DNA of 64,000 nucleotides from a virus (IMGVR_UViG_3300037067_004608:32001-96000), one strand, 5' to 3'. Shown: positions 241 to 56,491, numbered from the stretch's first letter. Numbers and translations: made by a program. Notes: a model not told the origin generated them from the sequence alone.

Positions 241-284
241 CCCGCCTAGCGATTGAAAGGGGCTGCATTCGCGTGAATTCACGC
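241..284 (-). repeat. Dispersed palindromic element, copy 1
   Basis: Minus strand reads GCGTGAATTCACGCGAATGCA-N13-GCTAGGCGGG. Confidence 0.9.
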
Positions 285-290
285 TCTATT

Positions 291-542
291 TTAAGCCCTT
301 CCCTCGATCTTTAGCCGAGTTCTACGACCGGGGCCGCCAGGTCGCATAGCACTTCCTATTGAGTCAAATCTCCTGGCTCCAGCCCTTCTCTTCATCTCTT
401 CGCAGTCTCGACATAGACCTTCCCTAGCAGCCTGACCAGTGCACTTTCCTGCATGCTGACCATAGCCAATACACTCATTAGGAAGGAAATCCTGCGACAT
501 TCTGTGCATAAAATCATCTCTTGCCATAGTAACACCTCTCAT
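291..542 (-). CDS. Hypothetical Cys-containing protein
   Basis: Overlaps the terS stop by 4 bp; contains a CxxC motif. Confidence 0.5.
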   Translation of the reverse strand: MRGVTMARDDFMHRMSQDFLPNECIGYGQHAGKCTGQAAREGLCRDCEEMKRRAGARRFDSIGSAMRPGGPGRRTRLKIEGRA

Positions 543-1210
543 TCGATTATTGTCTGCTGCCTTTCACCAACAGACTCCAATATCCTCCTGCGACATTCTG
601 GGCACAAGATTCCATTGATAAATGAAAGTTCTCTAGTTACAGATTCTCTCACCTTCTCAAGAATCTCAGACTCATCACCTTGTATAGCCACAACAATTTT
701 ACGATCTCTTAGCTGCTCATATGCAGCAGATACTGTCTTCACAGTCGATTCAAGGAGCATCCTGAAATAATATTCCCGCTCCTTCTTATTCTTCCTTGGC
801 TTTCTACCAACTACTTCAAAGCCAGCAGAGTTCTCATCCTCTTCCAGCTCCTCAGCAGCTTCGCACATCGCATCGGACATCTTACGAACATACTCAGCAA
901 GTTTTACCTTACTGAGGGCAGCTTCGTGGACAAGAGTTAGATCACCAAAAGCCTGGTCATACAAATCCTTTTGATCTTCATTGAGAGCTTGAGAATAAAG
1001 ACCATGCTCAACTGGGCGGCCAGGAGCTTTGCGTATGCCAGTCTCTTCACGAATAGCAGTTCCTGCTCCATGAACAGCGCAGACATCATAACCGTCTCTG
1101 GCCGCCCTTCTACACCTCTCCTGAGTCTCCTTACACATAGCAGTGCACTGGCGAGCACGCCCTTCGTCAATTGCTTTTTGTAAACTATTTCCTGCATCGT
1201 GATTAGCCAT
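539..1210 (-). CDS. terS: Terminase small subunit (HGGxSTG-type Zn-binding N-terminus)
   Basis: CTAMCKETQERCRRAA...CAVHGAGT...HGLYS matches the HGGxSTG domain typical of TerS, followed by a helical region. Confidence 0.7.
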   Translation of the reverse strand: MANHDAGNSLQKAIDEGRARQCTAMCKETQERCRRAARDGYDVCAVHGAGTAIREETGIRKAPGRPVEHGLYSQALNEDQKDLYDQAFGDLTLVHEAALSKVKLAEYVRKMSDAMCEAAEELEEDENSAGFEVVGRKPRKNKKEREYYFRMLLESTVKTVSAAYEQLRDRKIVVAIQGDESEILEKVRESVTRELSFINGILCPECRRRILESVGERQQTIIE

Positions 1211-1239
1211 CTTACTTCCCTATATACCAGTAGATGCAT

Positions 1240-1282
1240 AAAAGCAGAGAAGGGCTGCCGATTGTATTCAGCAACCCTTCTC
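1240..1282 (-). terminator. Hairpin/attenuator between a TATAAT (about 1312-1317, minus) and terS
   Basis: GAGAAGGGTTGC/GCAGCCCTTCTC stem followed by TGCTTTT on the minus strand. Confidence 0.5.
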
Positions 1283-1322
1283 ACAACCCAAGCCCCGCAC
1301 TCTAGCGATAAATTATACTCTG

Positions 1323-1886
1323 CTAGGCTATTGCTCCAGAATCTCTCCTCTTCAACCATTCAGCGAAATCGAGGACATTCTGAAATACAGCATCAGGTTT
1401 CCTTTCCATAGCATCTATCTTCTCATGATCGATGAAGCCTGAGAGGACAGCGATAGAAGGGCAACCAGCATTCTTAGCAGCTTCAATGTCCGACTCGCTA
1501 TCTCCAATAAACCAAGACTGGCTTAGATCAATATCATAGGTCTTAGCAGCTTCAAGAATCATACCTGGCTGTGGCTTCCTACACTTACACATCTTGTCCC
1601 CAATATTATGGACACAAGAATAGAACCTTTTGATATCTCCACCATACTCCTCTACATTTCGAGATAGTTTTATGTGGATATCACAAAGTTCTGCAAGACC
1701 AAAGAAACCTTTGGCTATTCCAGATTGATTAGTAACGACAAATACGAGGTATCCCAGTTTATTAAAGATAGAGATTGCTGGTCCAGAGAATGGGAACACC
1801 TCAAGGTCTTCAGGTTTGTTCACATAAGACCCAAGACGGAATACATTCAGTACACCGTCACGATCGAGAAATATTGCTTTTGCCAT
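1323..1886 (-). CDS. gmhB: D-glycero-D-manno-heptose-1,7-bisphosphate phosphatase (HAD family)
   Basis: FLDRDGVLN, VTNQSG, CxH...CxCRKPxPGM and IGDSESDI motifs. Confidence 0.9.
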   Translation of the reverse strand: MAKAIFLDRDGVLNVFRLGSYVNKPEDLEVFPFSGPAISIFNKLGYLVFVVTNQSGIAKGFFGLAELCDIHIKLSRNVEEYGGDIKRFYSCVHNIGDKMCKCRKPQPGMILEAAKTYDIDLSQSWFIGDSESDIEAAKNAGCPSIAVLSGFIDHEKIDAMERKPDAVFQNVLDFAEWLKRRDSGAIA

Positions 1887-2305
1887 TAATCACTCTTTCT
1901 AAACTCAGGAATAGGAACCACAGCAGTTAGCCAGTCAACTCTAGTATAATCACTTAGAGAGCGACCTAAGCCAAGAGCAGGATCAAGAACTGAACCATCT
2001 GCCTCGACAGCTATATAGTGACGACTATCTCCGACATAAACTATAGCAATATGATTGCAATTGGCAAATGGAGATTTTGGTCGAAGTTCAGCATCTTTAA
2101 CAGAAGAGACTCCTCGACATATTGCGAAACCTTTGCGCATCAGAAATATTTCTACATCATAATCCAATGCGCCATTTGATTCCTCAATATTTCTACCTAG
2201 ATCATTATCAAAATAATCTAGTATAGAATCATAGTCAATCCCAGTAACCATAGCCAAAGTAGCTACAGCACAGTCCCTGCTTCCTCTTTGATTAACCAGA
2301 TTCAT
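1886..2305 (-). CDS. Peptidase C39-like (papain fold) protein
   Basis: Q...DCAVATLAM, later HYIAV and LDP: Cys-His-Asp triad pattern. Confidence 0.65.
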   Translation of the reverse strand: MNLVNQRGSRDCAVATLAMVTGIDYDSILDYFDNDLGRNIEESNGALDYDVEIFLMRKGFAICRGVSSVKDAELRPKSPFANCNHIAIVYVGDSRHYIAVEADGSVLDPALGLGRSLSDYTRVDWLTAVVPIPEFRKSD

Positions 2306-2478
2306 TTAGCACACCAGAGAATAATTCCGTCAACGAGGACAGAGATACCAGCAGCCCTCCACAAAAATATCGCATACGAAGAAATATGAAACAAGTCTAG
2401 CGCTGCGCCTATTACAGAACAGAGAAATGCACACCAGAATAGAACAATGAATATTACACCAAGAAAGTTACTATTCAT
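2302..2478 (-). CDS. Small membrane protein (58 aa, below ORF-track cutoff)
   Basis: MNSNFLGVIFIVLFWCAFLCSVIGAALD...; two hydrophobic segments; ATGA-coupled to its neighbours. Confidence 0.55.
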   Translation of the reverse strand: MNSNFLGVIFIVLFWCAFLCSVIGAALDLFHISSYAIFLWRAAGISVLVDGIILWCAK

Positions 2479-2848
2479 TTCTTCACCTGCTTCTTCTGAT
2501 TATTTGAATACCAGTCAGAAACCTTATCCAGAACACGAGAACTTATTTCTTCAAGAACATCAGAGCTGATAGATGAACCATCTGCTGAAATGCAATCTTT
2601 CACAATATCTTCAATATCATATCTCAGTAGATAATCTGAAGCCAAATTAATCATACAGAATCCACATTATAGTCAGAATATCATCGTCATCAAACTCATC
2701 ATCAAACAAATCCATCACCACACAGACCGTCATCGGGCCTTGTAAGATAACTGAGAGCACCAACCAGAACGGATACCTCAGCCAGCTTTGCTGGTAAATC
2801 CAGTATAATAGGATAGGGCTATACGAGCGTGACTAGGACGGCCCGCAA

Positions 2849-3088
2849 CTAGAATCCTTGAAATTCAGGAAGTTTTTCAACCTTCGCAGGACTAATCCAC
2901 TTCTTTCTAAAGCAGGCAATCGAGCCACCATTGACTACATCTTCATTATATGCAGCTATGGCCGAATCACACTCTTCTTGAGTGAAGACAATGAAGCCAG
3001 GCTGGATATCGCCATTACCCCAGAAGAGACACACCTCAAAGGCGGGTCTTGGTATTCGATTAAGAAAACCTCTAAGCCAGTGTGCCAT
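2849..3088 (-). CDS. Hypothetical protein, first gene of the leftward arm
   Basis: GGAGG RBS at 3096-3100 (minus); promoter just upstream. Confidence 0.6.
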   Translation of the reverse strand: MAHWLRGFLNRIPRPAFEVCLFWGNGDIQPGFIVFTQEECDSAIAAYNEDVVNGGSIACFRKKWISPAKVEKLPEFQGF

Positions 3089-3106
3089 CGGCGTCCCTCC
3101 TAACTA

Positions 3107-3135
3107 ATTATACGCGAACGAGAAACGCTGTTGAA
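3107..3135 (-). promoter_or_regulatory. Leftward promoter
   Basis: TTCAAC-N17-TATAAT, with CG immediately before the -10. Confidence 0.55.
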
Positions 3136-3386
3136 GGTATAACTGTTTAATAAAATTGATGTGCATCGTTGAAGAGAAAATGAAAATGGGCGAGATTGGG
3201 CGGTGATGGAGGGGTGCGTATGTGAGAATAGATATAAAATAGATATTATGAGGAAACTATAGAACTGTTTAATAGAAGTGGTGTGCGCGGGAGGTGAGAG
3301 GAACGGACGTGTGAAATCGCGCTCGTATTCCTATATAGCGCGAAACCAGGGGGCCTTCCTTCCTCAAAAACAGGTAGTTTCACTAG

Positions 3387-3415
3387 TTCCATTCTTCCTT
3401 CCTTCGAGGTATAAT
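3387..3415 (+). promoter_or_regulatory. Sigma70-type promoter P1 of the cassette
   Basis: TTCCAT-N17-TATAAT, preceded by ACTAG as in P2. Confidence 0.65.
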
Positions 3416-3454
3416 GTATATGTAAGCGAACGAAGGAAAGTGAGACAAACTACA

Positions 3455-3553
3455 ATGACGAAGGCGTTAGCAATCTTTACCTTAATCATCTTAGGATGTG
3501 CCGGGTATTATGTGTGGGGAATCCTTCAAGTTCTTGGAAGGTTCGCTCACTAG
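3455..3553 (+). CDS. 32-aa single-pass membrane peptide
   Basis: MTKALAIFTLIILGCAGYYVWGILQVLGRFAH downstream of P1; ACTACAATG start context shared with the 4486 gene. Confidence 0.5.
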   Translation: MTKALAIFTLIILGCAGYYVWGILQVLGRFAH

Positions 3554-3572
3554 AAACCAGTAAGAATACTAG

Positions 3573-3601
3573 TTGTCTTACCCGAAGATTCGTGGTAAGA
3601 T
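3573..3601 (+). promoter_or_regulatory. Sigma70-type promoter P2 with extended -10
   Basis: TTGTCT-N17-TAAGAT with TG-n before the -10, preceded by ACTAG. Confidence 0.65.
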
Positions 3602-3611
3602 TAAGTATAGG

Positions 3612-3628
3612 ACATTGACAAACGAATA
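3612..3628 (+). promoter_or_regulatory. boxA-like antitermination element
   Basis: ACATTGACAAACGAATA just after the predicted +1; resembles rRNA-leader boxA (CTTTGAAAACTGAAYA type). Confidence 0.45.
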
Positions 3629-3693
3629 ACGGTTTCCTTCCTCCAAGCCTTCGCGGGGAACGCACAGAAGAGTAAGCAGAGGAAGGGAAGAAT

Positions 3694-4438
3694 AGGGAAG
3701 GGAATCAAGTTTACTCGAATATCGAAAGGGGTAAACATGAAACCTAAGTATAACCTTAATGTCACTCTAACGAAGGAAGGGAAAACCGCTTATGACGGTA
3801 TAGCATTGATGGATGCTATATTCCCCCTTCTTCCAGCGGAAGGTAAGTTTACAATGGCCTTCCGTCACGAAAACCTTCGCGGGTTTGCTAAGATGGTATG
3901 CCTTCTTGCAACCTTCGGCGCGAAGGTAGGCGTGAAGATTCTAACCCGTGCCGATTGGCACGCTTGCGCTACAACCGGGAAGGATATACCGGAAGATGTC
4001 AAAGTCGAGTTTTCCTCGAAGGCCGCCGCCGTATCCTTCCTTTACGTTTCCCAGATTCCCTGTATTGTTGCCGGGAACTGGAAAACACTTCCTTCTGATT
4101 CCGAAGGCGCGCTCGCTACCTTCTTGAAGCACATTCAGGAAAACGGAATCAATCGACTTTGCACAAGTGGCGAAGGCGGGAAAGTTATTCCTCTCAAGAA
4201 GGCAGGCGCATCGACTCTTAGCGCCGTAGTTGAGACAATTATGGATGCTAAGAAGTCGATAGCCGGTAAAGTTCCTGCTAAGAAGGAAGATACTCCTAAG
4301 CAGTCGCCGGTTGCAAGGGCGAAGGCCGCGAAGTCTACTCCAAAGGCAAGAACGCCTAAGACAAAGAAGGCCGAAGTCAAGCCTGTTGAAGCTACAACCG
4401 AAGTAGCTAACGCCTAACTTAACTTGATTCCCTTCCCT
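3694..4438. repeat. 18-bp perfect inverted repeat bracketing CDS 3737-4417
   Basis: AGGGAAGGGAATCAAGTT (3694-3711) / AACTTGATTCCCTTCCCT (4421-4438). Confidence 0.85.
3737..4417 (+). CDS. Unknown protein with Lys/Ala/Pro/Thr-rich H1-like tail; paralog of 17740-18648
   Basis: AAGGGG RBS; tail ...PVARAKAAKSTPKARTPKTKKAEVK; five colinear blocks align to the 17740 protein. Confidence 0.8.
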   Translation: MKPKYNLNVTLTKEGKTAYDGIALMDAIFPLLPAEGKFTMAFRHENLRGFAKMVCLLATFGAKVGVKILTRADWHACATTGKDIPEDVKVEFSSKAAAVSFLYVSQIPCIVAGNWKTLPSDSEGALATFLKHIQENGINRLCTSGEGGKVIPLKKAGASTLSAVVETIMDAKKSIAGKVPAKKEDTPKQSPVARAKAAKSTPKARTPKTKKAEVKPVEATTEVANA

Positions 4439-4485
4439 TCCTTATCTAGTCCGAAACAACGCTAACACGAAGGGAGAACACTACA

Positions 4486-4665
4486 ATGGAACGATGGGTA
4501 TATACAGGATTAAGAGGAAGTCAAGGTAAGATATACCGAAAGGTATATGACGATGTAGAGTCACCCGACTTCGCCGAAGAATACGACAATGGGAACCTTT
4601 GCGAAGTTACCCCCGAAGGATGGGAAACGATCTACCATCATTATGCAATGAAGAAGGCCGCATAA
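4486..4665 (+). CDS. 59-aa hypothetical protein (not in ORF track)
   Basis: MERWVYTGLRGSQGKIYRKVYDDVESPDFAEEYDNGNLCEVTPEGWETIYHHYAMKKAA; AGGGAG RBS. Confidence 0.65.
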   Translation: MERWVYTGLRGSQGKIYRKVYDDVESPDFAEEYDNGNLCEVTPEGWETIYHHYAMKKAA

Positions 4666-4673
4666 GAAGGAAC

Positions 4674-4720
4674 ATAAGTATAGGAAGGAAGGCTTAATTT
4701 ACCTTCCTTCCTATACTTAT
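4674..4720 (+). terminator. 19-bp hairpin ending the cassette
   Basis: ATAAGTATAGGAAGGAAGG-N9-CCTTCCTTCCTATACTTAT. Confidence 0.7.
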
Positions 4721-5102
4721 CTCACAACTCCCAACCCGCCATCACGCCACCACTCAATCACATCTCCATAATCAACAATCCAGCACCACTATCAATTTCA
4801 TCAAACTGAGAGGCAGCCACAGGACTCACCAGCTCACCATCATATGTCTCTCCACCAGCCAGGTGGTGACTGTATGTTGCTATGATAAGAGCATCATTCA
4901 TCTAATTCGCCAGTGGACTGTGATATGCATGTTCTGCGGCTAATTTGTAATACAACAGGCCACCCACATACCACTAATACAGCCATCGCCTATGATATGA
5001 TGAATGTCTGTATAATTCAACAGTCCAATCATCACACAGCACGATGGCCCACCAGTCCATCCACTATTGGCCATATTCACCCGAGCAGATTGAGGACTAA
5101 AA

Positions 5103-5181
5103 GTGAATTCACGCGATTGTATAGCAGGCCGAATAATCCCCCGATTCCAAACGGTCAAGCGATTGAATAGCGTGAATTCAG
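5103..5181. repeat. Two degenerate, facing copies (2 and 3) of the palindromic element
   Basis: GTGAATTCACGCGATTGTA (+, 5103) and TGAATTCACGCTATTCAA (-, ending about 5163); GAATTC cores 69 bp apart. Confidence 0.7.
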
Positions 5182-5968
5182 CCGCTAAACAAGGGCCCAG
5201 CCGCCCAAGCACTCGATAGAATCCATGCGCTCTTGAATATTATGAGATGGGACAGTTGCTGGCCGCATGGAAACTGATTGCATGAAGAAATGTTGAAAAG
5301 TGCAGCATTGCAATGAAAACTGTTTAATTGAAACAATAGCAAGGAGCCATGAGACCCACTCATTCCCTCGTGATATTCTTTTCTATATTGCTGGAAGGGG
5401 TCAAAAGTCACACTCGGTTCATATATCCACCCTCCCTCGATAGACGACCTTTGCTGGATTTTTCTTTATCCTCAACTGACCACAAGAGCCACTCCAAGCT
5501 GAGAGCAACAGCAATGATATTATACAGTTCTTTCCTTGTCTATGTGGTTAACCATTACAAATACCTTTTTTGATTCTTTCCTTTTATACACATGACCACA
5601 CGACACAGGCACACCAGGGAGCAGACAGACAAAGCAGATGGTCTAACTGTAATGGTGTTTATTATTAGTATTACAACCTATTAGGGTTTTAAGAAGAATT
5701 AGAATGGTTAGGGGATCAGTTCATCTATTCACTCTTGCAGAGGGATAGGTTGCGGGTTAGAAGATTGTAGATCATAATCAGTATTATATGAGCTAGAGAA
5801 GGGTTCTGTGCTGTGGTGTGGTGGTGGTGTGATGTGCTGATTATCACTGTTCGGGATTTTTGGATCCAGGAATTGCGGAGGTGCGATATATCTGACTGGT
5901 AGTTGAAATTGAAAATACCGGCACCATAATTTCGGACGCCACTCATCTGGTTCAGATGTCAAGTCATT

Positions 5969-6771
5969 CTAAGTGGAGAATGAGATTATTGCACCTTCAG
6001 CCGTCAAATACACACTGTCAATTAGTGTTGATAGGAGCTTGCCATCAGAAGACTTGAGAAGGCACGTTCCAGATTCTACTGATACTACCTCATATTTCTC
6101 CGCTCTAACTTCCTGCCTAAGACCAGATGGATAGAGGTGGACAAGTGCGATAAATGGCTTATATACTGTTTGGCCTTCTTTTAACTTGAGCATTGCTTAC
6201 CTCTCAAATAAGCTAGTTCTACAAGACCAGAGGTGTGTGGATCTTGATTATGTATAAGGTCGGAGACAGGGTTACATTTGTGAGTTTTCATATCCTCTTC
6301 TGTCATCATTTCTCGGCAGATTGTACATTTCCAAGTTGTCCCTCTTGCCTTTATTATTGATGCTCTTTCACTAGGTCTCATTAGTCACCTCTGTGCTCTC
6401 ATGCGACTCAGGAGATACAGAAAACCAACGGACAGACCTAAGTGGTATATGCCGATTGTGGCCATCAGATAATCTCATCCAAAGTAGATCACAGCCAAAT
6501 CTTACTTCATCAGCCTCAAAAGACTCGAAGTATCCGTCAAACCAACGAACATTTACTACACGTTTCATACCTTCTTCCTTTCTGGTATAAAGTCTGGAAT
6601 TAGATTCCTGGCTATATAAAACTTGAGAGTTCCAAAGAATGATGAGATAAGCACCTGTAATGGGTTATCTTCCTTGAAATAAGCAATAGCAAAGTAGAAT
6701 GATATAGCAGATGACGTTGCGAAGAAGATAGCAAGAAGTATCCTAATAATTATCATCAAGACCTTCTTCAC
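5969..6771 (-). other. Four tightly coupled small hypothetical genes (5969-6193, 6181-6381, 6371-6568, 6565-about 6771 membrane protein)
   Basis: Overlapping start/stop codons, same strand as neighbours. Confidence 0.6.
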
Positions 6772-7202
6772 CTTATCTCTACCCTCACTTGCATCAGCAT
6801 GTTGCCGAGAACATTGGCTCCAGGTTTCTTCAGACACTGAGGGCACATACAGGTTCCCCAATAGTTGTCGTGCCAATTGTTCCCTTCGATTATAGGTTGA
6901 TACCCGGTTCGACGAAGCATTGATCTTAGTTCAGGAACTGCGAACTTCAGCCTGAGAAGCTCAAGCATTATCTTATACTTGTCCTCATCCCAGAAAGAAA
7001 CTCGAACACATTCCTTTCCTCTCCTCTTGGCTTCCCCTGGAGAGCAGGTAGCCATATACCTCACATCTACAGGATCAGAGCACTTTGCTGCTTGGAAGGC
7101 ATTCTCTGTTGTGAGATAAGTTACACCACGAAAGACTATGCCTCCTGGTATCTCATAGAAGTTGCTCAAGAAGCGATATTCGCCGCTAAACTCAGTTATC
7201 AT
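6768..7202 (-). CDS. NADAR (YbiA-like) family protein
   Basis: FLSNFY, TTENAFQAAK, KFAVPELR..L..TG, IEGNNWHDNYWG, GANVLGNMLMQVR. Confidence 0.9.
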   Translation of the reverse strand: MITEFSGEYRFLSNFYEIPGGIVFRGVTYLTTENAFQAAKCSDPVDVRYMATCSPGEAKRRGKECVRVSFWDEDKYKIMLELLRLKFAVPELRSMLRRTGYQPIIEGNNWHDNYWGTCMCPQCLKKPGANVLGNMLMQVRVEIR

Positions 7203-7400
7203 TCTTCTTCTGGCTCCTTGTGGATAGAGATGTGCTCTCTTTCATTTAGGCACATTCCAAGGCTGTTGAACTCTTCTTTGACTCGGAGAACATCTCCAGT
7301 TTTCAGTGTTACGAGAGCAGTATTGTCAGTCTCACACTCAATGATGCGTATCTCCGATATTGGAACTAAGTATTGCTTGCTAGAAGTCCGATGGTCTGAC

Positions 7401-8129
7401 TTAGTGGTTAACCATAGAAACTTTCTCATAAGGCTTGAATCCTTCCTTCTCCGCGTGTGCTATTAGGAGAGCATTAGCATCCTCTCTTGACTTACAAGGA
7501 GCTTCCTGACCGGTGTAAACAGAGCCGTTATGTATTACCCACCATCCGGGGTTTATACATTGATTGGATACAGTCCAGATATTCCCATCCTTATCAGTAT
7601 ACTTCGGAGAGGGAATGAATCCGTAGTGTGTAGCGAGTAGTGCTTCTACAGTTCCACGAGTTCTTGGGTGGAGATTCATTCTCTGTTGAGGATACCAGGT
7701 GGAAACATCATTCTTTCCTGTCTTACAGATACTAAATCCTGCCCAATCAGCTACCATCTCTCGGACAAAGTTCTCTGGCATTGAGATTGCTCTATCCTCT
7801 ATCAGCCAGTATTGCCAGTGGTGAGGATTATTGTGAATATGGTTGTTCCAAGCAGCGTCGAAGTCAGCTTTGAGTTCTTCGTGTTTAGTGAACTCCCAAG
7901 TGTATCCTCCATTGAATAGAGTTCCTTGAACATCGTGGAACCAGTGTAAGTATCCACCAAACTCCTTTGTGGAGAACTTACTGTTATCATGAGTGAGTGC
8001 CTGTATAATAGGAACCTTCAGTCTGAGGCACTCTCTGAAGACACAGAACTTGTGCTTCCATACGTAAGTGTAGTATTCAAATGTCTTCTTTATGCTACAG
8101 CCTTCGACACCTATTGGTTGTTTGTCCAT
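7401..8129 (-). CDS. HD-type metal-dependent hydrolase (DUF5662-like)
   Basis: HK..V, HDNSKF, HIHNNPHHWQYW, EMVADW; start taken at MDKQP. Confidence 0.75.
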   Translation of the reverse strand: MDKQPIGVEGCSIKKTFEYYTYVWKHKFCVFRECLRLKVPIIQALTHDNSKFSTKEFGGYLHWFHDVQGTLFNGGYTWEFTKHEELKADFDAAWNNHIHNNPHHWQYWLIEDRAISMPENFVREMVADWAGFSICKTGKNDVSTWYPQQRMNLHPRTRGTVEALLATHYGFIPSPKYTDKDGNIWTVSNQCINPGWWVIHNGSVYTGQEAPCKSREDANALLIAHAEKEGFKPYEKVSMVNH

Positions 8130-9704: not shown

Positions 9705-9747
9705 ATTACATTCCTACCTTTCCTCTACTTATCTATACGACTTACGA

Positions 9748-10020
9748 TAATATCAGTGCCCGGATGGTGAGTCCGAGCACTGATGTCACGCGACTAACAC
9801 TTATTTTTACGCTTTTCTTCAGGGGCGGGGATCTGCTCCTGGCTAGTAGAACTTTACAATGACTAGCCACAGGCGGAATAGCCTTGGGATGATTCCCAAG
9901 GAAATCGACGCACAATATTACATCCCACAAGAATGCTATAAAGTCATAGCCATCGTTATGTGGGATAATAGAAACCGGTGATAAAGACCAGTAACTCGGA
10001 GCGTAGTCCATTGACCTATC
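9748..10020 (-). ncRNA. Candidate structured RNA downstream of the HNH gene
   Basis: Stems ACTGGT/ACCGGT, ATCCCACA/TGTGGGAT, CCTTGGGA/TCCCAAGG, TGGCTAGT/ACTAGCCA, ATCAGTGCTCGGA/TCCGGGCACTGAT. Confidence 0.45.
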
Positions 10021-10027
10021 TTACTAC

Positions 10028-10495: not shown

Positions 10496-10631
10496 AGTTC
10501 TTTATACTCCATACGTAACGATCAGCCTAGTAAATCTACTAGGTTTTTCTTGGTATTTAGCGTTTTTCAACCGATTAGTTGACTTATTTATACGGATTAG
10601 GAGGAATTATCCGACCGCTCGTATAAGAAGT

Positions 10632-18677: not shown

Positions 18678-18718
18678 AAAGCCCTGCAGTCGGTGAATTC
18701 ACGCGAATGCAGGGCTTT
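18678..18718 (+). repeat. Palindromic element copy 4, embedded in a hairpin/terminator
   Basis: AAAGCCCTGCA-GTCG-GTGAATTCACGCGAA-TGCAGGGCTTT. Confidence 0.85.
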
Positions 18719-19103
18719 CATACGTTCGGACTAGTAAGAATACCTCTACTTAGGAAGAAGCTAGAAACAGGATAGCAAAATGGGGAAGCGTGCAGTATTT
18801 GTTGATAAACGAGATATGCCAAAGAAACTCTACCCACATCAATTCAAGGTAAAAGGCTCATTAACACGAGCATCTGATGCTGGTATTGTTCCAATGGATG
18901 TATTTGTGGAATTAACAAAAGCTGAAATAACCCTGGCTAATGCCGAAGCTAGATATGTTTCTCTGCTTCTTGCTAGCACAAGATCGGACGTATTGAATGA
19001 AATAACTGCCCACCTCAAATACACAAAAGAAATGGAAGAAAAGTCTGGTGCTATTATCAGACAACTAACCAAGTAACGAATACTCAGAAAGGAGCATTCA
19101 GAA

Positions 19104-21202: not shown

Positions 21203-23792
21203 GTGAAGTGCCCATTTTGTAAAGGTCACGATATGGATTATGTTGAAAAACATAAATGGCACCAGTGTGACTATTGTAAGACAATAGTTATGAATGACGG
21301 AATAATATACATTATGCCAGATGATTCGCAATTATCACTACGTGAAATCATAGGTAGACTACAGAATCTAATACAAGAATGTGGCATAAGGGTGACAGAA
21401 GAAGGAATAATAGTCAATATTCCATAAGGATGATAAATGAAAAAAGATAATCCAACATGCGAAGATTGTGGGAGATTAGACTGTGAAGGTCTAACAGCAG
21501 AAGATCCATCCCCTATGTGTGTAGATTGGGTTCCAATAAATACAGAAAGAAAGGAGAAGAAATGTCAACAGGAACAGAAGATGTAGAATTTGGTCAATGG
21601 ATGAAGAAAGTAGATGATGTACTAGAGACAGAAATTGGTCTTTCTCATTCAGATCTTCCTGACATAAACTATCGAATAATGTTTGAGTGTGGAGACAGCC
21701 CTTCACAAGCAGCTAGAGAAGCACTCGATGAAGCAGGATTCTAATGGTCAAAGTCAGAGATAGAACTCAAGATAGAAAATCATACTCTGGATCAGAGGCA
21801 GATGCCAAAGACAGAGAGTGCCCGTGTAGATCGTGTTTTAGAATCCATGACTACGGAAGCACAGATTATTCTGGTAAATGGGTAACAAACTATAGATGCT
21901 GGAGAAGAGAGCAAGATGGTTGCCCAGATAATATACCAGAACCAGAACATATCTTTGTATCAGATAGAGCATATGTCTGTAAAAGATGTGGATACAGGAG
22001 AAAGAAACAATGAGAATATTTTCAAAACTTTTCCCTTTCCGTAAACAAAAGAAAAAGGAGGTGGTGAAAGAACCAGTAGAAGAAATTTGTCTAAACTGCC
22101 ACTGGTGGAGAGATAGAAATGACACATCTAAATATCCACCAATAGGAATTGGAATTGGCAGATGTTTCAAAGAGCATGGGTGCCCACTTGATGGATACAA
22201 AGCGCATTTTGCGCACTCTTGCTTTGATGACTGGAAAGAAAAGAAGGTGGCAAATGCTTAAGCCAGATGTTAAAGTATTTGAACTAAGAGATAGGATGAC
22301 TACAATATCTATCATGTGTATTAGGATAGATTTGTCAGAAGTAACAGAACCAGATAGATTTATCATCAGAAGAGCAGGTTGGGGTTCTAATGCCAAGGCT
22401 ATTTATATGATAAATCTATCGACTTGCCAATGTATATTCGAGCCTGGAAGATGGAACTCACATACATATGATACAGCACATCAATATGTAGAGGAGCACT
22501 GGGACGAATTACAAGGAGGGGAGGTGATTGATGCAGAATATATTCGTGGCGAATCAGAAAAGCCAAAAGAAAGTGAAAGACATTTAGAAGGAAAGTAATC
22601 AACTTGAAAGGACTCTCATATGAGATTACATATAGAAGAAACTGATTCGCCAATGCTAACTGATGATGCTCTAGCAAATGCTTCAAGACCTCTAAATCAA
22701 TATAATCCTCCATCTGGAGATGAAATACTGAGAACATGGGAACAGGAAGATATGCCTCTGCCATTTAGAGATGAGGACAATCTTCCATATATGTGCTTCA
22801 TCAAAGATAAGATGCACGCAATAATACACAGACCTCTTGATGGTATAGAATATCATTGTGCGGTAGTGTATCACGAAGAAAAAGGCTGTATCTATATCTG
22901 TAACTGCTATAACGACATAGATGCAAATAGAATATACATCATATTCGGAATGGCAGCCTTTTGGCATCTTATCCTTCCCGAAGAAGGAATAACCGCTAAT
23001 TAGAGCGTGAATTCACGCGAATGCAGTCGGTTTGCAGCTTCCCTCGACTTCTAACCCGTCTAATATCTAGGAGGAATAGATGAAAGACTTCAACGCCTAT
23101 TCAGTTGGTCCACTATCAGCTTCTGTGTGTAGTTCTCTTGGACCAGAAGAGACTGTTAAAAGAATGAATGAAGAACATCCAACTGGAATAGATTCACCTT
23201 GGTCAATCTCCAAAGAAACACACTTCAGAACTGGCCAGCCAAATCCTTGCTTCTGTGAAGAGAGTCCTACAACTCACATGCACTATTTGCTTATAACATT
23301 GCCAGATCTCGAAGACACTCTAACACAGATAGCAAAGACAATAGAGGAAAAGTTATGAGAGAACACAAAGATATTGAAATGACTCCAGAACTACATTTGA
23401 AATCTCTCAAACTCATAAGAGAGATAATTGCAAATAGTTCCAAGATAATGTATTATGATGATACTACTCCTGGAAATAAGCACACAGAATGTAGCTGGGG
23501 ACTTTGTACAGATGCAAAAGAAGCATGGCCAGATAGTGAAATGCATCTGTGGCCAGATCAGTTTGAAGAAAAAGGAAGAGTTGCTCCAAAATATCACAAG
23601 AAAGATCAAGTGTGTCCTCTTGATACTAGATCAATAGAAGCAGATCATTCAAACGGATGTTTCTATACATGCCAAGCTTTCAAAAGAAAGAAAAGAAAGC
23701 AGCCTCTGACTAAAGAATATGTTCTTCAACTCTTTGATACAGAGATACAGAGATACGAAGGACTATTAGCAAATGACAAAGTCATACGATAA
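21203..23792 (+). other. Cluster of small hypothetical genes (21203-21427, 21562-21744, 21744-22013, about 22010-22261, 22254-22598, 22620-23003, 23080-23358, 23355-23792)
   Basis: Coupled plus-strand ORFs, several Cys/His-rich. Confidence 0.65.
23005..23025 (+). repeat. Palindromic element copy 5
   Basis: GCGTGAATTCACGCGAATGCA; the satellite box appears inverted further downstream (CCCGTCTAA, about 23055). Confidence 0.9.
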
Positions 23793-28941: not shown

Positions 28942-28973
28942 GACGGAATCGAGGGTTTGCGACCTACTTTTAA

Positions 28974-29017
28974 GCGTGAATTCACGCGAATGCACCGCCT
29001 CTCGGATACTAGACGGG
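28974..29017 (+). repeat. Palindromic element copy 6
   Basis: GCGTGAATTCACGCGAATGCA-N13-ACTAGACGGG. Confidence 0.9.
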
Positions 29018-29758
29018 TTTTAATACTCGTTTCCTAAGTAAAGAGGGTGCAATGACATAATAACAGGAGAAGATAATGGTAGTGGACAGTAAACAATATG
29101 CCGTTGGTTTAACTAGGATATATTTCTATTGTTTCGAGTGTGGACCAGATATAGATGATCCTAGTGCACCAGGCAAGAAAAAGAAAGACACTCCTGGCCA
29201 GAGAGTTATGAAAGCTGAATGGAGAAAAGATTCCAGAGTATATTGTCCACGCTGTAAAAGACTTATGATCTTTGATGGTGATGCATTATATGACAATGTA
29301 ACAGGAAATGCTCATTTTTGGATAGAGAGACCAGATGGACTCATAGTCCCAAGAGGTCACCTATTCAGATACGACCTAAAAGGTGAAGGATATGTTTCAC
29401 CAAGATACATTTCACCAAAACCAGGAGATGGTGTAAACATAGACTTTGTAAAAGAATATGATAGGCTGAATGGAGGAAACAGTGCAGTGCAACAGATGCC
29501 CTAATACTTTCCCAAAAGATGCAGTCCACGATCTTCATCTTGATATAGAAGAAGGAGTCATGATACATGTTTCCTTCCCTATAAATCAAGTTGATGGAGA
29601 AGTAATTTCTCTGTGTAAAGATTGTCTACAGTCAACTTTCCAAGAGTTCATGGACAATCTTAATCCAGCACAAAAGCAATTCATGAGAGACCAAGCAAGA
29701 AAACAAGCGATTGATGTATCAATATTATCGCTTGTAGCAGATATGGAAGAATAAAAGG

Positions 29759-33381: not shown

Positions 33382-33520
33382 TTGCCAGAGTAGCCGGAAG
33401 GCGTATAGATAAGCGGGAACGACGTTCGGAAGTGATTTTGGTTTCAAGTATCCTGCCTGAAAGTGCTCTCCGCTGCCATCAACTTCGGACGCTTTCCCAG
33501 CTTTCAGGCAGGATTTTCTT
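33382..33520 (+). promoter_or_regulatory. Promoter plus stem-loop leader of the replication operon
   Basis: TTGCCA-N14-CGTATAGATA, then ATCCTGCCTGAAAG/CTTTCAGGCAGGAT 14-bp stem and a T-run. Confidence 0.55.
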
Positions 33521-36934: not shown

Positions 36935-37162
36935 ATGCCGATATACGAGTTCTATTGTGTAAATTCAGGATGTCCTGGATTCAATTCTATTATAGAAGAA
37001 ACCCAGAGAATGAATGATGAGCACAAAGCACAATGCCAATTCTGTGGTGGAGATATGAAAAGGAAGTTTGGGAACTTCATAGATCAATATAAAGGTGAAG
37101 GATTTACCAGATCAGCAGATGCGAAAGAGGAAGTTGATGTGTGGAAATCAAAAGGAGAATGA
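36935..37162 (+). CDS. FmdB-family zinc ribbon protein
   Basis: MPIYEFYC...C...CQFCGG.MKR.F....YKGEGF. Confidence 0.85.
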   Translation: MPIYEFYCVNSGCPGFNSIIEETQRMNDEHKAQCQFCGGDMKRKFGNFIDQYKGEGFTRSADAKEEVDVWKSKGE

Positions 37163-37402: not shown

Positions 37403-38455
37403 ATGGCAAGAATAAAGGTTAAAGATCAGCATATTGATATTGATCTTATGCAGTTGATGACTGATTATGGCATCAAAGGCAAGAAGATCGGTAATGAGTA
37501 TGTTGCTTTTTGCCCTTTCCATGATGATAATTCTCCAAGTTGGTCTCTAAAGCTCGAAGGAGATAGAGCTGGTCTATGGCATTGTATGTCCTCTAGTTGT
37601 GAGTTAAAAGGAAATATAATAACACTCATAACTATGATGGAAAATTGCGGTTATAAAGAAGCAATTGCATCACTAACTGCTATAGAATCAGAAATAAATG
37701 TATACCAAAAAGATTTAGATTCACTAGTTAATAGACTGCTATCAATAGGAATAGACACTAGGCAGTCTAGCCTCAGATACAAAGTTCCACCAGACTGTAG
37801 TAAATCATACGTTCAAACCTTCTTCACAAATCCAAAAGAAAAAGGAGGTAGAGGATATTCAAAAGAAGAGTTTGAACAATTGATTGTTGATGATGTAGTA
37901 TATTGTGAATCAGGTTTCTTCAGGAATAAGATCATAGTTCCAATCTACAATGAATCGGGCGAGCAAATCTCGTTTGTAGCAAGAACTCTTGATCCAAATG
38001 TCATGGAGAAATACAGATACCCAAAGGGCTGGATGAAGAATCTCTTTGTTTACAGAATGGAAGCTAATCCATCTGAGCCTCCGGTTATATGTGAAGGAAT
38101 ATTTGATGGCAAGCATATACAAGGTATCTGGAATAGAACTGCATTAGTAGTCTTTGGCAGTTCTCTTACTACAGCGCAAATAGCGTGGATAGCAAAAAGA
38201 TACGACAAAGTAACATTTAGCCTTGACGGAGATAAGGCAGGAAGGAAGGGAACCTATCACGGTATAAAAAGCATGCAACAATTTGGAACTGATATCACTG
38301 TTATGGAGCTACCCGATGGCTTCGACCCTCCTGGAGTTTCAAGGACGGAAATGACTAATCTAGTATTGATGGCAGCAAAGGACTATGGAGAGAAATGGGA
38401 GAGAAGTCATATGTTGAGCAGATTCTCGATGACTGGCATCCGAGGATCAAAATGA
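37403..38455 (+). CDS. dnaG: DNA primase (CHC2 zinc finger + TOPRIM)
   Basis: CPFHDDNSPS, WHC...C, ICEGIFDG, SLDGDKAG, DP. Confidence 0.9.
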   Translation: MARIKVKDQHIDIDLMQLMTDYGIKGKKIGNEYVAFCPFHDDNSPSWSLKLEGDRAGLWHCMSSSCELKGNIITLITMMENCGYKEAIASLTAIESEINVYQKDLDSLVNRLLSIGIDTRQSSLRYKVPPDCSKSYVQTFFTNPKEKGGRGYSKEEFEQLIVDDVVYCESGFFRNKIIVPIYNESGEQISFVARTLDPNVMEKYRYPKGWMKNLFVYRMEANPSEPPVICEGIFDGKHIQGIWNRTALVVFGSSLTTAQIAWIAKRYDKVTFSLDGDKAGRKGTYHGIKSMQQFGTDITVMELPDGFDPPGVSRTEMTNLVLMAAKDYGEKWERSHMLSRFSMTGIRGSK

Positions 38456-38949
38456 TGATTGCCCGCTGCGGCTTTGGCGCAGAGGACAAAGAATTGTTAG
38501 AGAATGAGCTACTTGAGAAAGTAGTAACGTGTATCGAAGAATACGACACATCATACGATGCAAAGTTCGATACATTCACCAATAGATGTTTAATGAATCA
38601 TATTCAGGTTCATCTAAGAGGTGAGAAAAGAAAGAAGCACTCATTTATATCGAACTCAATGTCCTTGGATTACACAATTGATGAGGGAGATACAATCTCA
38701 GAACTTATCGCTGATCCAAAGGCAATATCTGCAGATACCATTATTTTCAACATAACTTTGAGTGAAATAATGAATCTGCTTCCTGATGTTTGCAAAGAGA
38801 TAGTAAGCCTTCTTTGCGCAGGTTTGAGTGAGTCAGAAATAGCAAGAATTATTGGAGAAGAATCTCGACTAGTAAGAGGATATATCGAGGAATGTATACA
38901 GCCTTTAGTGGTAGAACTACTTCTTTGTGAGGAAAGAAATGACGGATAA
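38395..38949 (+). CDS. Sigma-70 family RNA polymerase sigma factor (compact, regions 2 and 4)
   Basis: YD.SYDAKFDTF..RC..N, SLD, LP...EIV.L...GLSESEIARIIG. Confidence 0.8.
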   Translation: MGEKSYVEQILDDWHPRIKMMIARCGFGAEDKELLENELLEKVVTCIEEYDTSYDAKFDTFTNRCLMNHIQVHLRGEKRKKHSFISNSMSLDYTIDEGDTISELIADPKAISADTIIFNITLSEIMNLLPDVCKEIVSLLCAGLSESEIARIIGEESRLVRGYIEECIQPLVVELLLCEERNDG

Positions 38950-41485: not shown

Positions 41486-41512
41486 CAGTCGGTCTAGCCG
41501 TCGTATAGATAG

Positions 41513-43497: not shown

Positions 43498-43750
43498 TGA
43501 CAAAAGTAAAACTTACTTACTTCAAAGAAAGTGGTAAGTATTATAGTGATGGAGAATATGAAACTGACCTCCAGGAATGGCATGATGTTATAAAGGACAT
43601 CAAGATAAAGCAAGAAGAAGGAAATCTACCAGGACTTGTTGAAGGTGGCGGTCAGGAGTTTATGATTCTGGTAAATACAGAGGGAATCGGGACTGCAGAT
43701 GTTCCTCATATTATACACCCTATTCCTCCCGAAAACCGGAGATACTAAAC

Positions 43751-43792
43751 CCCGTCTAACGATTGGAAGGCCCTGCAATCGCGTGAATTCAC
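43751..43792 (-). repeat. Palindromic element copy 7 (opposite to local transcription)
   Basis: Minus strand reads GTGAATTCACGCGATTGCA-N13-GTTAGACGGG. Confidence 0.9.
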
Positions 43793-43842
43793 TCGCCTTT
43801 TCCGCCCCGAAACGACCGAAACGACCGAAGGAGGAAAGGAAT

Positions 43843-48760: not shown

Positions 48761-48769
48761 GAGAAACAA

Positions 48770-53409: not shown

Positions 53410-53753
53410 TAAATAACGAGGGTAGTATAAATATCTAGTCGAAAGAGAATCTTCCCCTAAAATGGAAATACTCAGTTTCACACATTGGGCATCAGAATAT
53501 ATATCTGAGAAGGGATGGCGTGTCCCAGTGCTGATCTGCCAAGGTGGGTATATCAGGATTGGTATAGAAGTTTCATCCTTTTCAAGAATGAAGACATATG
53601 ATGATTACCCTGTGGATTCTATAATAAAAGCTGATACGCCAGAGAAAGAGGCTAAACTCAAGATGCTAGTAAAAGTAAATCTTGATAGATTATACACTAG
53701 TCTCAAAGCTCTACATAGGCAAGAAGAAATGAAAGACGAGGTAAGAAAACAGC

Positions 53754-54521
53754 TTGGATACTGATACTCCTAAAGTTCACCTAATTTCTGCAACTCCTAA
53801 TCCCCGATCAATTCTTTCATTTTGTTGGTCGATAATCAATGAACCAGGATTCCCAATAAATACTGATATCATTGATATGACAGAACTTGGAGAAGCAATA
53901 ACATTTATTGACCCTGTTTCTGGTGCTGCTGGAGAGAATATAGAGACCATAGTTAGAGAGTTTCTCAAATCTGGTCTTGGCGGTCCACTAGAGATGATCA
54001 ACTTTGTCTTTGGCTTTGAGGGAGTAACAAGAGCTTTTACTCACCAAATGGTAAGAACAAGACTTGCAAGTTATATGCAGCAAAGCCAGAGATTCACAGA
54101 CTTCGACGGAAATCTACCTGTTAAAATGCCTGATTCCATCAAGAGTGATAACTGTGACGACAGTAGAGCTGAAGTTCTCTGGGAATCTGCTATAGGTAAA
54201 ATAGAGTTTGTTTGCAAGGAGCTAAAGGCTCTTGGAATACCAACACAAGATATTCGTGGATTATATCCTACAAATATAAAAACGAATATCATACAATGTA
54301 TTGATTACAACGCTCTGAGACGGATGATGTCTCATAGACTTTGTACACAAGCCCAGCAAGGTGAGTGGGCACCTGTAGCAGCACAGATAAAGCAAATAGT
54401 TACAAATTATGATCCTATTCTTGGGGAAGGTCTTGTAGCTGCGTGTCAGCTAACTGGCAAATGCGCATTTGATACTGTGCTAGATAGGGAATGCCCAAAT
54501 AGAGAAGCCCTCAAAAAGTAA
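53754..54521 (+). CDS. thyX: FAD-dependent thymidylate synthase-like
   Basis: F.FEGVTRAFTHQMVRTRLASYMQQSQRF, QDIR..YP, RLC.QAQ..W. Confidence 0.85.
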   Translation: MDTDTPKVHLISATPNPRSILSFCWSIINEPGFPINTDIIDMTELGEAITFIDPVSGAAGENIETIVREFLKSGLGGPLEMINFVFGFEGVTRAFTHQMVRTRLASYMQQSQRFTDFDGNLPVKMPDSIKSDNCDDSRAEVLWESAIGKIEFVCKELKALGIPTQDIRGLYPTNIKTNIIQCIDYNALRRMMSHRLCTQAQQGEWAPVAAQIKQIVTNYDPILGEGLVAACQLTGKCAFDTVLDRECPNREALKK

Positions 54522-54600
54522 AGTTTCCCTTGGCTGCCTCTGTGGCCGGAAGGTAGTCAAGGGAAATAACGCAGTAAATATATTGAAAGGTGGAAAACAG

Positions 54601-56406
54601 ATGAAGTTTGCAAACAGACTCGTTCTTGTGTTAGCACTAATTTTGTGCTGCACAGTGGCATTCTCTGCCACTTACTATGTGAAATGGGATTCTCCCATTA
54701 ATGGTCCTGGTAATGATCTTGACCATGCATACCATACTATTGCTGCTGCAATAACTGCTTCAAGCAACGGGGATACAATATATGTATATGGTCCTCACTC
54801 ATATGCAGAATCCCTAGACTTGAATAAGCAACTGACGGTTACAGGAGTAAATGGGCCGACTATAGATGCTTCTTCCACTGGTTACGGAATTATAATCAGT
54901 GCGGCATCTAACTTACAATACTTCACTGTTCTTGGAGGACATTTTAATGCAATAAGCATAAAGAATGCTGCAACAGGAACAATGGTAAAAGGCTGTACAG
55001 TAAATGTATACCAGTATGGTAAAGGTATCTATATTGGATATGACAGTGCATCAGCATCAGCATCTGCTAGAATTGACAATAACATAATCTCCGGTGGTTC
55101 CTGGAAATCAGAGGGAATATTTGGCTGTATAATTTCTTGGGGAGGTAACTCGATTATAACAAGTAACCTCATCAAGAATGGTGCTCTTGGAATATTCTTA
55201 TATGGAAGTGGATCACCGTCTATTTACAATAACACAATTGTTGGATGCAACAATGTAGCAACTGGTTCAAATCCTCCTGCAACAAAAGGTGGAGGAATAT
55301 ACATAACTCACTATAGTTGGCCACTTATTGAAAATAACATAATTGCCAACAATAACGCTGATTATGGTGGAGCCTATTACATAGACCTAACAGGTGGTGG
55401 CTCTGTTCAGGATATGGGGTGGAACACATTCTATGGAAATACTTCAAATATTTCTGGATATGTTTACTACCCAACACAAGCCAATTTTGGAACAATTGGT
55501 GTAGATGGAAATAACGAAGATAATCCAGTATTTGTTGGAAGTTCTGATTACAGACTACAATATAACTCAACATGTATAGGAACTGGAAACAATAACTATG
55601 CTGGCGGAGAATGCTGCTGGAAAGATATAACAGGACTTCCTCGTGTATTGCCAGCAGCGGGAACTGTTGACAGAGGATGTTATGAAGGTGCATCTGTACT
55701 AACAAATACAAGAACTGTGGGCGACTGGGTAGAGCTAAGATCAAAACCTGTAACTGGTAACTTTACAGATATGTTCTATGTTGAAGAGCCAAGTAGAGTT
55801 AATGGAGTAAAGATACTATCTACAAGTTCTGCAGTTGCTGGAGATTTAGCAACAATAGATGGACAGTATGTTACAAATGAAAATGAGTTATCTATTCAGC
55901 CAACAAGTGTTTCTATAACTTCTGGAAGCTCTTCAAATATACCAGGGACTCTTGGAATGCCAAACCGATCTCTTGGAGGAATAAACATAGGACTCCTTGT
56001 TAGAGTTTGGGGAAAGATAACTTCAGCAGCAGCTGGCGTATACCTAATAGATGATGGTTCTGGTATAAACAGCACTGTTCTCTGGTATGGAACTCCCTAC
56101 AACGTTAATGACTACATAGCTGTAACAGGGGTAAGTTGTTATGGTTGTGTAAGAGCAACTTCTGTTGACTATATAACAACAATAGAAGGTCAGCAGATGA
56201 TGTCTATGGGAATGTCCTCAAGTTCTCTATCTATTGATAAGAGTTCATCTAAATATGAATCCATTCTCAGATGGCAGCAGTTCTTACAGGACAACTTAGA
56301 TGAGCTTGCAAAGCACGAGAAATTAACCGCTTCACAGATAAGCTGGAAGAATCTTATTGAGATACTTATGAAGCAGGCCCAAGAGCAACTATCCAGCTAT
56401 AAGTAA
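54601..56406 (+). CDS. Secreted right-handed beta-helix protein with C-terminal OB-like repeats
   Basis: Signal peptide, TYYV, TI.AAI...GDTI.V, I.NNTI/I.NNII rungs, VDRGCYE, NIGLLVRVWGKIT...IDDGSG. Confidence 0.85.
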   Translation: MKFANRLVLVLALILCCTVAFSATYYVKWDSPINGPGNDLDHAYHTIAAAITASSNGDTIYVYGPHSYAESLDLNKQLTVTGVNGPTIDASSTGYGIIISAASNLQYFTVLGGHFNAISIKNAATGTMVKGCTVNVYQYGKGIYIGYDSASASASARIDNNIISGGSWKSEGIFGCIISWGGNSIITSNLIKNGALGIFLYGSGSPSIYNNTIVGCNNVATGSNPPATKGGGIYITHYSWPLIENNIIANNNADYGGAYYIDLTGGGSVQDMGWNTFYGNTSNISGYVYYPTQANFGTIGVDGNNEDNPVFVGSSDYRLQYNSTCIGTGNNNYAGGECCWKDITGLPRVLPAAGTVDRGCYEGASVLTNTRTVGDWVELRSKPVTGNFTDMFYVEEPSRVNGVKILSTSSAVAGDLATIDGQYVTNENELSIQPTSVSITSGSSSNIPGTLGMPNRSLGGINIGLLVRVWGKITSAAAGVYLIDDGSGINSTVLWYGTPYNVNDYIAVTGVSCYGCVRATSVDYITTIEGQQMMSMGMSSSSLSIDKSSSKYESILRWQQFLQDNLDELAKHEKLTASQISWKNLIEILMKQAQEQLSSYK

Positions 56407-56447
56407 AGCGTATATACGATAGCGGAGGAGTTCCGATAGCGTTTTAA

Positions 56448-56491
56448 GCGTGAATTCACGCGAATGCAATCGGTTCACGCGGTTAGACGGG
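56448..56491 (+). repeat. Palindromic element copy 8
   Basis: GCGTGAATTCACGCGAATGCA-N13-GTTAGACGGG. Confidence 0.9.

Follow-up and report, generated by a model that had tools for sequence, protein, structure and literature searches.

A directional intergenic cassette repeated along the genome of an uncultured tailed phage as a candidate transcription-control element

Genome context of the cassette

The DNA analyzed here (IMGVR_UViG_3300037067_004608:32001-96000; hereafter the window, 64,000 nucleotides in all) comprises bases 32,001-96,000 of one 123,839-bp virus record (G0, or G000), and its intergenic spacers carry repeated copies of a polar, partly palindromic element, referred to below as the cassette, which is the subject of this report. 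The gene content of the record is that of a tailed phage. Genes for the tape measure, capsid, prohead protease, portal, and terminase occupy the minus strand in the first 32 kb of the record, and a long plus-strand block encodes ligase, helicases, DnaB, primase, a split DnaE-type polymerase, SbcD, and RecA; a transfer-messenger RNA (tmRNA) gene is also encoded by the phage. The record has a GC content of 40% and is strongly depleted of CpG, with an observed-to-expected ratio (o/e) of 0.44 for CG.

Beyond the window, one region is present at both termini of the record (1-10,945 and 112,937-123,839; L029 and L032), its copies being 82.9% identical, and this duplicated region of about 11 kb encodes tail genes and the tape measure. 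Given the duplicated ends, and the presence of the phage sigma protein (see below) on a separate contig of 113,017 bp, the true genome unit is about 113 kb, and the 123.8-kb record probably arose by joining two strain variants of such a genome in the manner of a concatemer. A megablast search of INPHARED with 24 kb of the phage returned no match, and in the INPHARED comparison its DnaE-type polymerase was less than 33% identical to that of every listed phage. One relative, G001, is complete at 113,031 bp, has a GC content of 47.5%, and shares about 65-75% nucleotide identity with G0 in alignable genes.

Copies and anatomy of the cassette

A search with GCGTGAATTCACGC, allowing at most two mismatches, returned window matches at 271, 5101, 5170, 18691, 23005, 28974, 43781, and 56448, against 0.10 expected, so that all eight copies listed in a preliminary description of this DNA are present far above chance. 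The bipartite form GAWTGCA-N13-RYTAGRCGGG matched exactly the four copies for which it had been reported, with none expected. An invariant asymmetric 18-mer, TGAATTCACGCGAWTGCA, which is unchanged in all good copies, matched seven times in the window (0.01 expected). Across the whole record, 13 good copies reduce to 12 unique sites once the duplicated ends are merged. In genome coordinates, they are 11632-, 23145-, 32271-, and 37170-, the last with a degenerate core and an auxiliary palindrome at 37101; sites 50691+, 55005+, and 60974+ follow on the plus strand, and the remainder are 75781-, 88448+, 99364+, 102925-, and 114954-, the last being the same site as 2060- in the duplicated end.

To describe the anatomy, we set polarity by the GAWTGCA side, counted positions (p) in nucleotides after the palindrome, and built an ungapped position table from 37 non-redundant copies. 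The polarity reported earlier is evident in these copies: the right arm and GAWTGCA are invariant, the left arm is degenerate, and a polar extension of 40 bp continues beyond them. The outer left arm of the 14-bp palindrome varies in both G0 and G001 (AAG, CCG, ACG, GAG, CGG, and ATA), and its replacement in many copies indicates that recognition is asymmetric; GCG is still the majority state despite these frequent replacements. The table further shows A at -6 and -5 and G at -2, together with C at p11 and T at p13; the bases immediately before the element are rich in A. At p24-28 it shows AGMCG, a looser form of the second box described earlier, which reads TAGACGGG, TAAGACGAC, or TAAGCCGAC. 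This second box (TAGACGGG/TAAGACGAC) spans p23-30 in fixed register and is followed, also in fixed register, by a third box at p31-41 that is TTCTAATACCT-like (also TTCTAATACC). An upstream TTGCG motif is found in just 6 or 7 of the 37 copies.

Position and direction relative to genes

The polarity of the cassettes tracks the three strand blocks of the genome, with 10 of the 12 sites pointing as the genes run. At 9 or 10 of the 12, in both G0 and G001, a co-oriented open reading frame (ORF) with a ribosome-binding site starts between p47 and p143. The minus-strand cassette at 230..292 (palindrome 271-284, 18-mer 264-281, D box 241-250) lies directly upstream of terL (L065:481-2136:-; phrog_675, E 1.8e-88), with the portal, protease, and capsid genes next in order; this is the classical position of a late promoter. 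On the plus strand, the cassette at 18678..18745, which includes a hairpin, follows a 302-amino-acid (aa) gene (17740-18648) and precedes a co-oriented ORF starting at p76. The cassette at 22997..23059 (+) is followed by a co-oriented ORF with AGGAGG that starts at p62 (23080), that at 28966..29028 (+) follows a 598-aa helicase gene, has a full D box, and precedes an ORF starting at p89 (29076), and that at 56440..56502 (+) follows a 607-aa gene, also has a full D box, and precedes an ORF starting at p87.

Two sites are arranged differently. The cassette at 43740..43802 (-) runs against its flanking plus-strand genes, has no co-oriented ORF within 400 nucleotides (nt), and is directed into the 3' end of a plus-strand gene of 84 aa (ORF 43494-43748). 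Its distal boxes overlap the end of that ORF, so the earlier statement that all copies are intergenic holds in general and fails at this copy. The same reversed arrangement of the 43781 copy occurs in G001, L001, L038, L039, L046, and L054. The second such site, genome 102925(-), lies at the convergent junction of a plus and a minus block, about 80 nt from a bidirectional terminator hairpin.

The composition of the sequence between core and start codon also bears on direction. In about 10 of 16 cases, these leaders contain no TG or a single one over 40-110 nt, and the first NTG is essentially the start codon itself. Downstream of the core, TG is more depleted (o/e 0.21) than CA (o/e 0.39), as expected of the sense strand of a 5' leader. 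Leader composition thus supports sense transcription running through these sequences.

We lean modestly toward reading the cassettes as phage-specific promoters that include an operator for a putative dimeric regulator. The element would then be a directional unit of transcription control, about 60 bp long and specific to the clade, placed in untranslatable spacers before gene blocks. The preliminary description had dismissed a promoter on the grounds that the neighboring genes are functionally unrelated and that one copy opposes local transcription. Neither ground is strong: a phage promoter class normally serves genes of unrelated function, and the opposing copy can be an antisense promoter.

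The main rival, which had been raised earlier as a stoperator-like roadblock and is still live, is that the cassette is a regulator site alone: a protein bound to the 18-mer would stop or modulate polymerase arriving from one direction, with no initiation at the site. We consider this unlikely. In its favor, two copies face incoming genes, the copy at the convergent junction adjoins a bidirectional terminator, and a second half-site at p61/62 and face-to-face pairs occur (see below). Dispersed, intergenic, asymmetric sites whose orientation tracks transcription are also a property of the L5-type 13-mers, and the stoperators of cluster A mycobacteriophages are numerous asymmetric sites in short intergenic spaces with an orientation correlated with transcription (PMC9283540). 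Stoperators differ from the cassette in being 13-mers without conserved flanks that are bound by a lysogenic immunity repressor, whereas here a module of about 60 bp is conserved, with no recognizable integrase or repressor. Fixed-register conservation extends 40 bp past the binding word toward the gene, something that a pure roadblock could do without. When 133 ORFs were scanned with Pfam, no repressor or other regulator of the helix-turn-helix (HTH) type was recognized, a result that covers the best 25 of 52 families, with two subsets (86 ORFs) covered in full. The phage encodes no tyrosine integrase, a finding that leaves room for serine integrases and novel repressors, and a 21-mer form of the word was found in 0 of 185,579 prokaryote genomes; together, these two results make a lysogenic immunity repressor unlikely.

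Conservation and distribution

The 21-mer is present in four IMG/VR contigs and in 26 metagenome contigs. Scanning the whole genome and related phages, as had been proposed, gave 12 sites in G0 and 12 in G001, of which 11 occupy orthologous positions. Orthology of 11 of 12 sites at about 70% identity excludes a mobile repeat, and the flanks share no repeat; the idea that the copies might be miniature inverted-repeat transposable elements therefore falls. Between orthologous G0 and G001 sites, the core is 90-100% identical, p23-41 averages 61% identity (74-95% in several pairs), and the flanks beyond the cassette are at chance level. Among wider relatives found through the capsid protein, the word is present in L061 and absent from L062 (13.7 kb), which is more distant, so that no co-varying variant of the word was found. 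A literature search for the core word returned cloning primers only, and GAATTC is not avoided elsewhere in the genome.

The same comparison bears on the possibility that the cassette is a recombination site at module junctions, where an identical word would let unrelated modules exchange, a role compatible with promoter function. Five of the 11 orthologous pairs lose G0/G001 homology on one or both sides at the cassette, which, coming from one genome pair, is suggestive. At 88448/1119 and 99364/13546 alignment fails on both sides, at 32271/53584 it fails upstream, and at 102925/17693 it fails downstream. The gene after the shared cassette also differs at 88448/1119, where a 56-aa ORF stands in one genome and a 216-aa ORF in the other. 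A precedent exists in the promoter early stem-loops (PeSLs) of T4-type phages, composite promoter/terminator motifs that serve as exchange points (PMC4122927). Like PeSLs (PMC2839356, PMC4122927), the cassette is a composite intergenic unit repeated at joints between conserved and replaced genes; unlike them, it does not fit sigma-A, whereas PeSLs carry sigma-70 early promoters. An identity of 18-21 bp is short for homologous exchange, mosaic joints in most phages fall at intergenic regulatory DNA anyway, and the comparison consists of two full genomes. As a primary explanation, exchange between modules is in our view quite improbable.

An auxiliary half-site and the level of recognition

Several copies contain a second recognition-like sequence at a fixed distance. 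In four ortholog groups with long leaders, the sole CA downstream of the core within the island of unusual composition described below belongs to a TTCA[CT] at exactly p61/62, with GTGGAA 12-14 nt further on. Of the 37 non-redundant copies, 9 have a second TTCAC at p61/62, as does the 5101/5170 pair. One such auxiliary half-site lies at L031:3437-3470 (genome 99437-99470, +), and others accompany G0 2060-, 23145-, and 114954- and G001 13546+ and 17693-. The 5101/5170 pair has the same architecture with a full second palindrome. What had been described as two separate copies, 5101(+) and 5170(-), is instead a single minus-oriented cassette (5101..5190) with a degenerate core at 5170-5183 (GGCTGAATTCACGC TATTCAA) and an auxiliary palindrome at 5101-5114, which places TTCAC at p62. 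Face-to-face pairs of this kind, 69-78 bp apart, are also found in G001 and L035.

Half-sites repeated at a fixed spacing of 68-69 bp point to a DNA-binding protein that recognizes GTGAA half-sites, and hence to an operator function. This bears on the earlier proposal of a protein-bound, chromosome-organizing site. Protein binding is plausible, because the consensus is a 14-bp palindrome and, in DNA otherwise free of CA, the long-leader copies have another TTCAC at a fixed p61/62; a parS- or matS-like partition site, a loop anchor, or a packaging signal is unsupported. The core consensus is palindromic, with a GTGAA-type half-site that we take to resemble those of parS and matS, and the copies are spaced roughly regularly, at 4-15 kb. 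Set against this, a search with PF02195 found no ParB_N match at E<=1, where the controls matched in 11 of 14 genomes, and the sites are polar, strictly intergenic apart from the overlap noted above, co-oriented with genes, and dispersed genome-wide. The left arm is dispensable, and an extended promoter-like register follows the core. Partition sites, moreover, cluster, and packaging sites are single. A chromosome-organizing role is accordingly very improbable, and we expect the cassette to have no bearing on chromosome partition or packaging.

Whether the element instead works in RNA, as a site of processing or termination or as a leader structure in read-through transcripts, was weighed from predicted folding. 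Short variable hairpins precede many copies, and the palindrome, followed on the opposite strand by a T-run, receives a weak terminator score. At the 18691 copy, the core lies within a 40-nt extended hairpin (18678-18718; 19-20 bp, -26.8 kcal/mol, z -4.9) that the G001 ortholog keeps through a compensatory GCCC/GGGC swap in the outer arms; this hairpin follows a gene and has no U-run. Ordinary copies, however, fold no better than shuffled sequences (z -1.5, +0.24, and -0.57; overall -1.5 to +0.2), the stem of the palindrome is just 5 bp and is broken by the left-arm variants, and the most conserved bases, CGCGAWTGCA, are unpaired. Ordinary structure and a stem broken by left-arm variants suggest that it is the DNA sequence that is recognized, and we regard action on RNA as highly doubtful. 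An intrinsic terminator was rejected on the 5-bp stem, the ordinary z values, and the missing U-run of the long hairpin. A downstream RNA hairpin (ACCTCC...GGAGG) was likewise rejected: inspection showed that the seven orthologs of the 43781 copy do not all retain it, and the fold has a z of +0.24.

Transcription machinery and promoter classes

The window encodes a sigma-70-family factor of 184 aa (38395..38949, +; PHROG 351/1740, E 4e-8; TIGR02937, E 3.8e-9) with weak matches to regions 2 and 4. This protein, whose homologs are confined to the same small clade, is the sole recognizable transcription factor and may be the reader of the cassette. Its gene stands immediately after a DnaG-type primase gene (37403-38455), an order that echoes the bacterial dnaG-rpoD arrangement.

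A second, sigma-A-like promoter class is also present. TTGCCA-N16-TATAGA lies at 33382..33409 (+), upstream of the block encoding DnaB, primase, and the sigma factor, and ATGACA-N16-TATAGA lies at 41482-41509 (+), before a structured-RNA/tmRNA region. The class is usually written CGTATAGATAAG and sits in CA/TG-poor islands. Further CGTATAGATAAG-class copies occur at about 10589-10594 (-), 10620-10625 (+), and 9734-9739 (-), where no -35 box is assignable.

The cassette itself was compared with several promoter types. A sigma-A promoter was rejected, as the position table contains no conserved hexamer pair at 17+/-1 bp; TTCACG (p-6..-1) and TTGCA (p3-7) occur without a -10 partner. A sigma-54 promoter was rejected by inspection: TTCACG-CGAW-TGCA resembles TGGCAC-N5-TTGC but lacks the GG and is one base short. 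Among geometries typical of extracytoplasmic function (ECF) sigma factors, GTGAAT-N17-sCTT, AAAC-N15-CGAAT, and GAWTGCA-N16-AGACG each fit some positions, and none explains the invariant spacer. For a T7-type RNA polymerase, PF00940 gave nothing at E<=1, although the control genomes also gave no signal. In crude gene calls, the ORFs of at least 550 aa outside the terminal duplicate are all annotated or were examined as encoding something else, except for a 742-aa and a 1261-aa ORF, which were assigned from context as a guess.

Two further proteins had been named earlier as candidates for binding assays with the element. The products of 17740-18648 (+) and 3737-4417 (+) are paralogs with Lys/Ala-rich tails and have homologs in this phage clade only. 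Neither has a Pfam, PHROG, or NCBIfam match, and the AlphaFold model of the 17740 protein (pLDDT 84) had no Foldseek match at E<=0.001 and a best VIA-align Z of 6.2, within background. These results give no evidence for or against sequence-specific DNA binding.

If the cassettes are phage-specific promoters, a simple cascade can be envisaged. Host sigma-A promoters, with the sigma-A-like promoter at 33382..33409 as the proposed early input, would express the phage sigma factor among other products. Host RNA polymerase carrying the phage sigma factor would then use the cassettes as non-early promoters serving the structural genes and much of the replication block. The palindromic GCGTGAA|TTCACGC would be the operator for a dimeric regulator, to which the copies with long leaders would add a second half-site 68 bp downstream, and the two conserved reversed copies might yield antisense RNA or block incoming polymerase. 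The element itself is unusual in that its 18-mer is invariant, an auxiliary half-site accompanies it, two conserved copies run antisense, and the surrounding islands are dinucleotide-purged.

Phage sigma factors and sigma-like late activators include gp28 and gp34 of SPO1, gp55 of T4, and the RinA/ArpU family, which acts upstream of terS. The present system resembles such promoter classes in having a sigma-70-family gene, a repeated motif that does not conform to sigma-A before gene blocks, including the packaging/head operon, and a separate sigma-A-like class available for early genes. It differs in that the cassette word is an invariant, partly palindromic 18-mer with no standard -35/-10 pair, and in that the cassette serves replication as well as structural genes and has two antisense copies. 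A second comparison is with T7-type promoter arrays, in which a conserved 23-bp word recurs in co-oriented, intergenic copies. Shared features are a long, near-invariant asymmetric word followed by G/C-rich bases, a dozen co-oriented intergenic copies, and nearby hairpins; the difference is that no match to a single-subunit RNA polymerase was found here with PF00940, for which the controls were silent too.

Several points weigh against phage-specific promoters with an operator. We infer the start of transcription at the cassettes, the protein that reads them, and the timing of their use from sequence, and it is by parsimony that the sigma factor is linked to the cassette. No -35/-10 pair at standard spacing can be assigned, and the invariant 18-mer is longer than what a sigma factor usually specifies. 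The Pfam scans described above recognized no HTH-type regulator that could act at the operator. Two of the 12 sites have no downstream co-oriented gene, and both are conserved in relatives. Finally, one ortholog family (G001 1119, L042, L044, L052, and L057) has a Shine-Dalgarno sequence at p34-37 and a conserved ATG at p47; unless the mRNA has almost no leader, transcription there must start no later than about p33. The box at p31-41 can therefore be neither a universal -10 element nor essential.

Should phage-specific promoters nevertheless be the right explanation, a transcription map of an uncultured 113-kb phage lineage would follow from sequence alone, with a sigma-A-like early class succeeded by a sigma-linked class with an operator. 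The specific 18-bp word and its reader would also be a possible orthogonal expression part.

Composition of the flanking islands

Around each copy in G0 and G001, over a span of roughly -50 to +80, composition departs sharply from the remainder of the genome. CA and TG are depleted 3- to 5-fold (o/e 0.2-0.4, compared with 1.15 for CA and 1.13 for TG genome-wide), and CG reaches an o/e of 1.2-1.3 compared with the genome-wide 0.44. TAG, with an o/e of 2.0, is the most over-represented trinucleotide in the islands, and CTAG stands at 2.4 compared with about 0.8 genome-wide. The regions of the sigma-A-like promoters share this composition.

This pattern fits spacers that are start-free, stop-rich, and untranslatable. 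Avoidance of start codons explains the islands in part; the depletion of CA and the upstream flank are left over, so the pattern remains partly unexplained. The phage encodes no C5 DNA methyltransferase. A bolder interpretation, which we judge rather improbable, is that the cassettes and the remaining regulatory spacers of the clade are "insulated" units of about 130 bp, enriched in CpG and TAG/CTAG and purged of TG:CA except where a protein reads the DNA, namely at the 18-mer, at the auxiliary TTCAC, and, in the sigma-A-like promoters, at the -35 boxes. Were the purge to exceed start-codon avoidance, it would amount to a new design rule for phage regulatory DNA, possibly in the form of a context-specific DNA modification that is kept out of protein-binding DNA or of a recognition code that uses TG:CA only. 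A new system of sigma factor plus cofactor would then read the 18-mer and also fire the antisense copies, shutting off earlier operons. In any case, dinucleotide-purged, stop-rich, start-free islands are unusual, easily testable, and searchable in other phages.

The region 10581-10907, a divergent region between minus and plus blocks, contains CA/TG-free, CpG-rich segments without the 18-mer and carries outward-facing CGTATAA motifs.

Additional observations

A relative contig with a homolog of the sigma factor (L002, protein P0004) was deposited within a metagenome-assembled genome of Candidatus Izemoplasmatales. As evidence for an Izemoplasmatales host this is weak, since phage contigs are often mis-binned and the GC content of the phages (40-47%) seems high for the group.

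The 5101/5170 pair lies in an ORF-poor stretch of 1.3 kb (window 4666-5968) without convincing ORFs. Its left part is C/A-rich and its right part G/T-rich, a perfect 20-bp hairpin at 4674-4720 marks its boundary, and it is alignable to G001 at the cassette pair only. An Rfam search of the region 4400-6200 gave nothing above threshold. The stretch may be transcribed from the 5170(-) cassette into a non-coding RNA, or it may hold fast-evolving small genes.

The 607-aa ORF that precedes the cassette at 56440..56502 (54583-56406, +) has no Pfam or PHROG match; its language-model neighbors are all right-handed beta-helix proteins, which at a score of 0.86 is a lead only. The gene after the reversed cassette (43840-44427, +) starts at GTG 43840 and not at ATG 43699 of the longest ORF. 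Its product is a signal-peptide protein with a weak 3D-domain match, and the ortholog in L001 starts at the same point.

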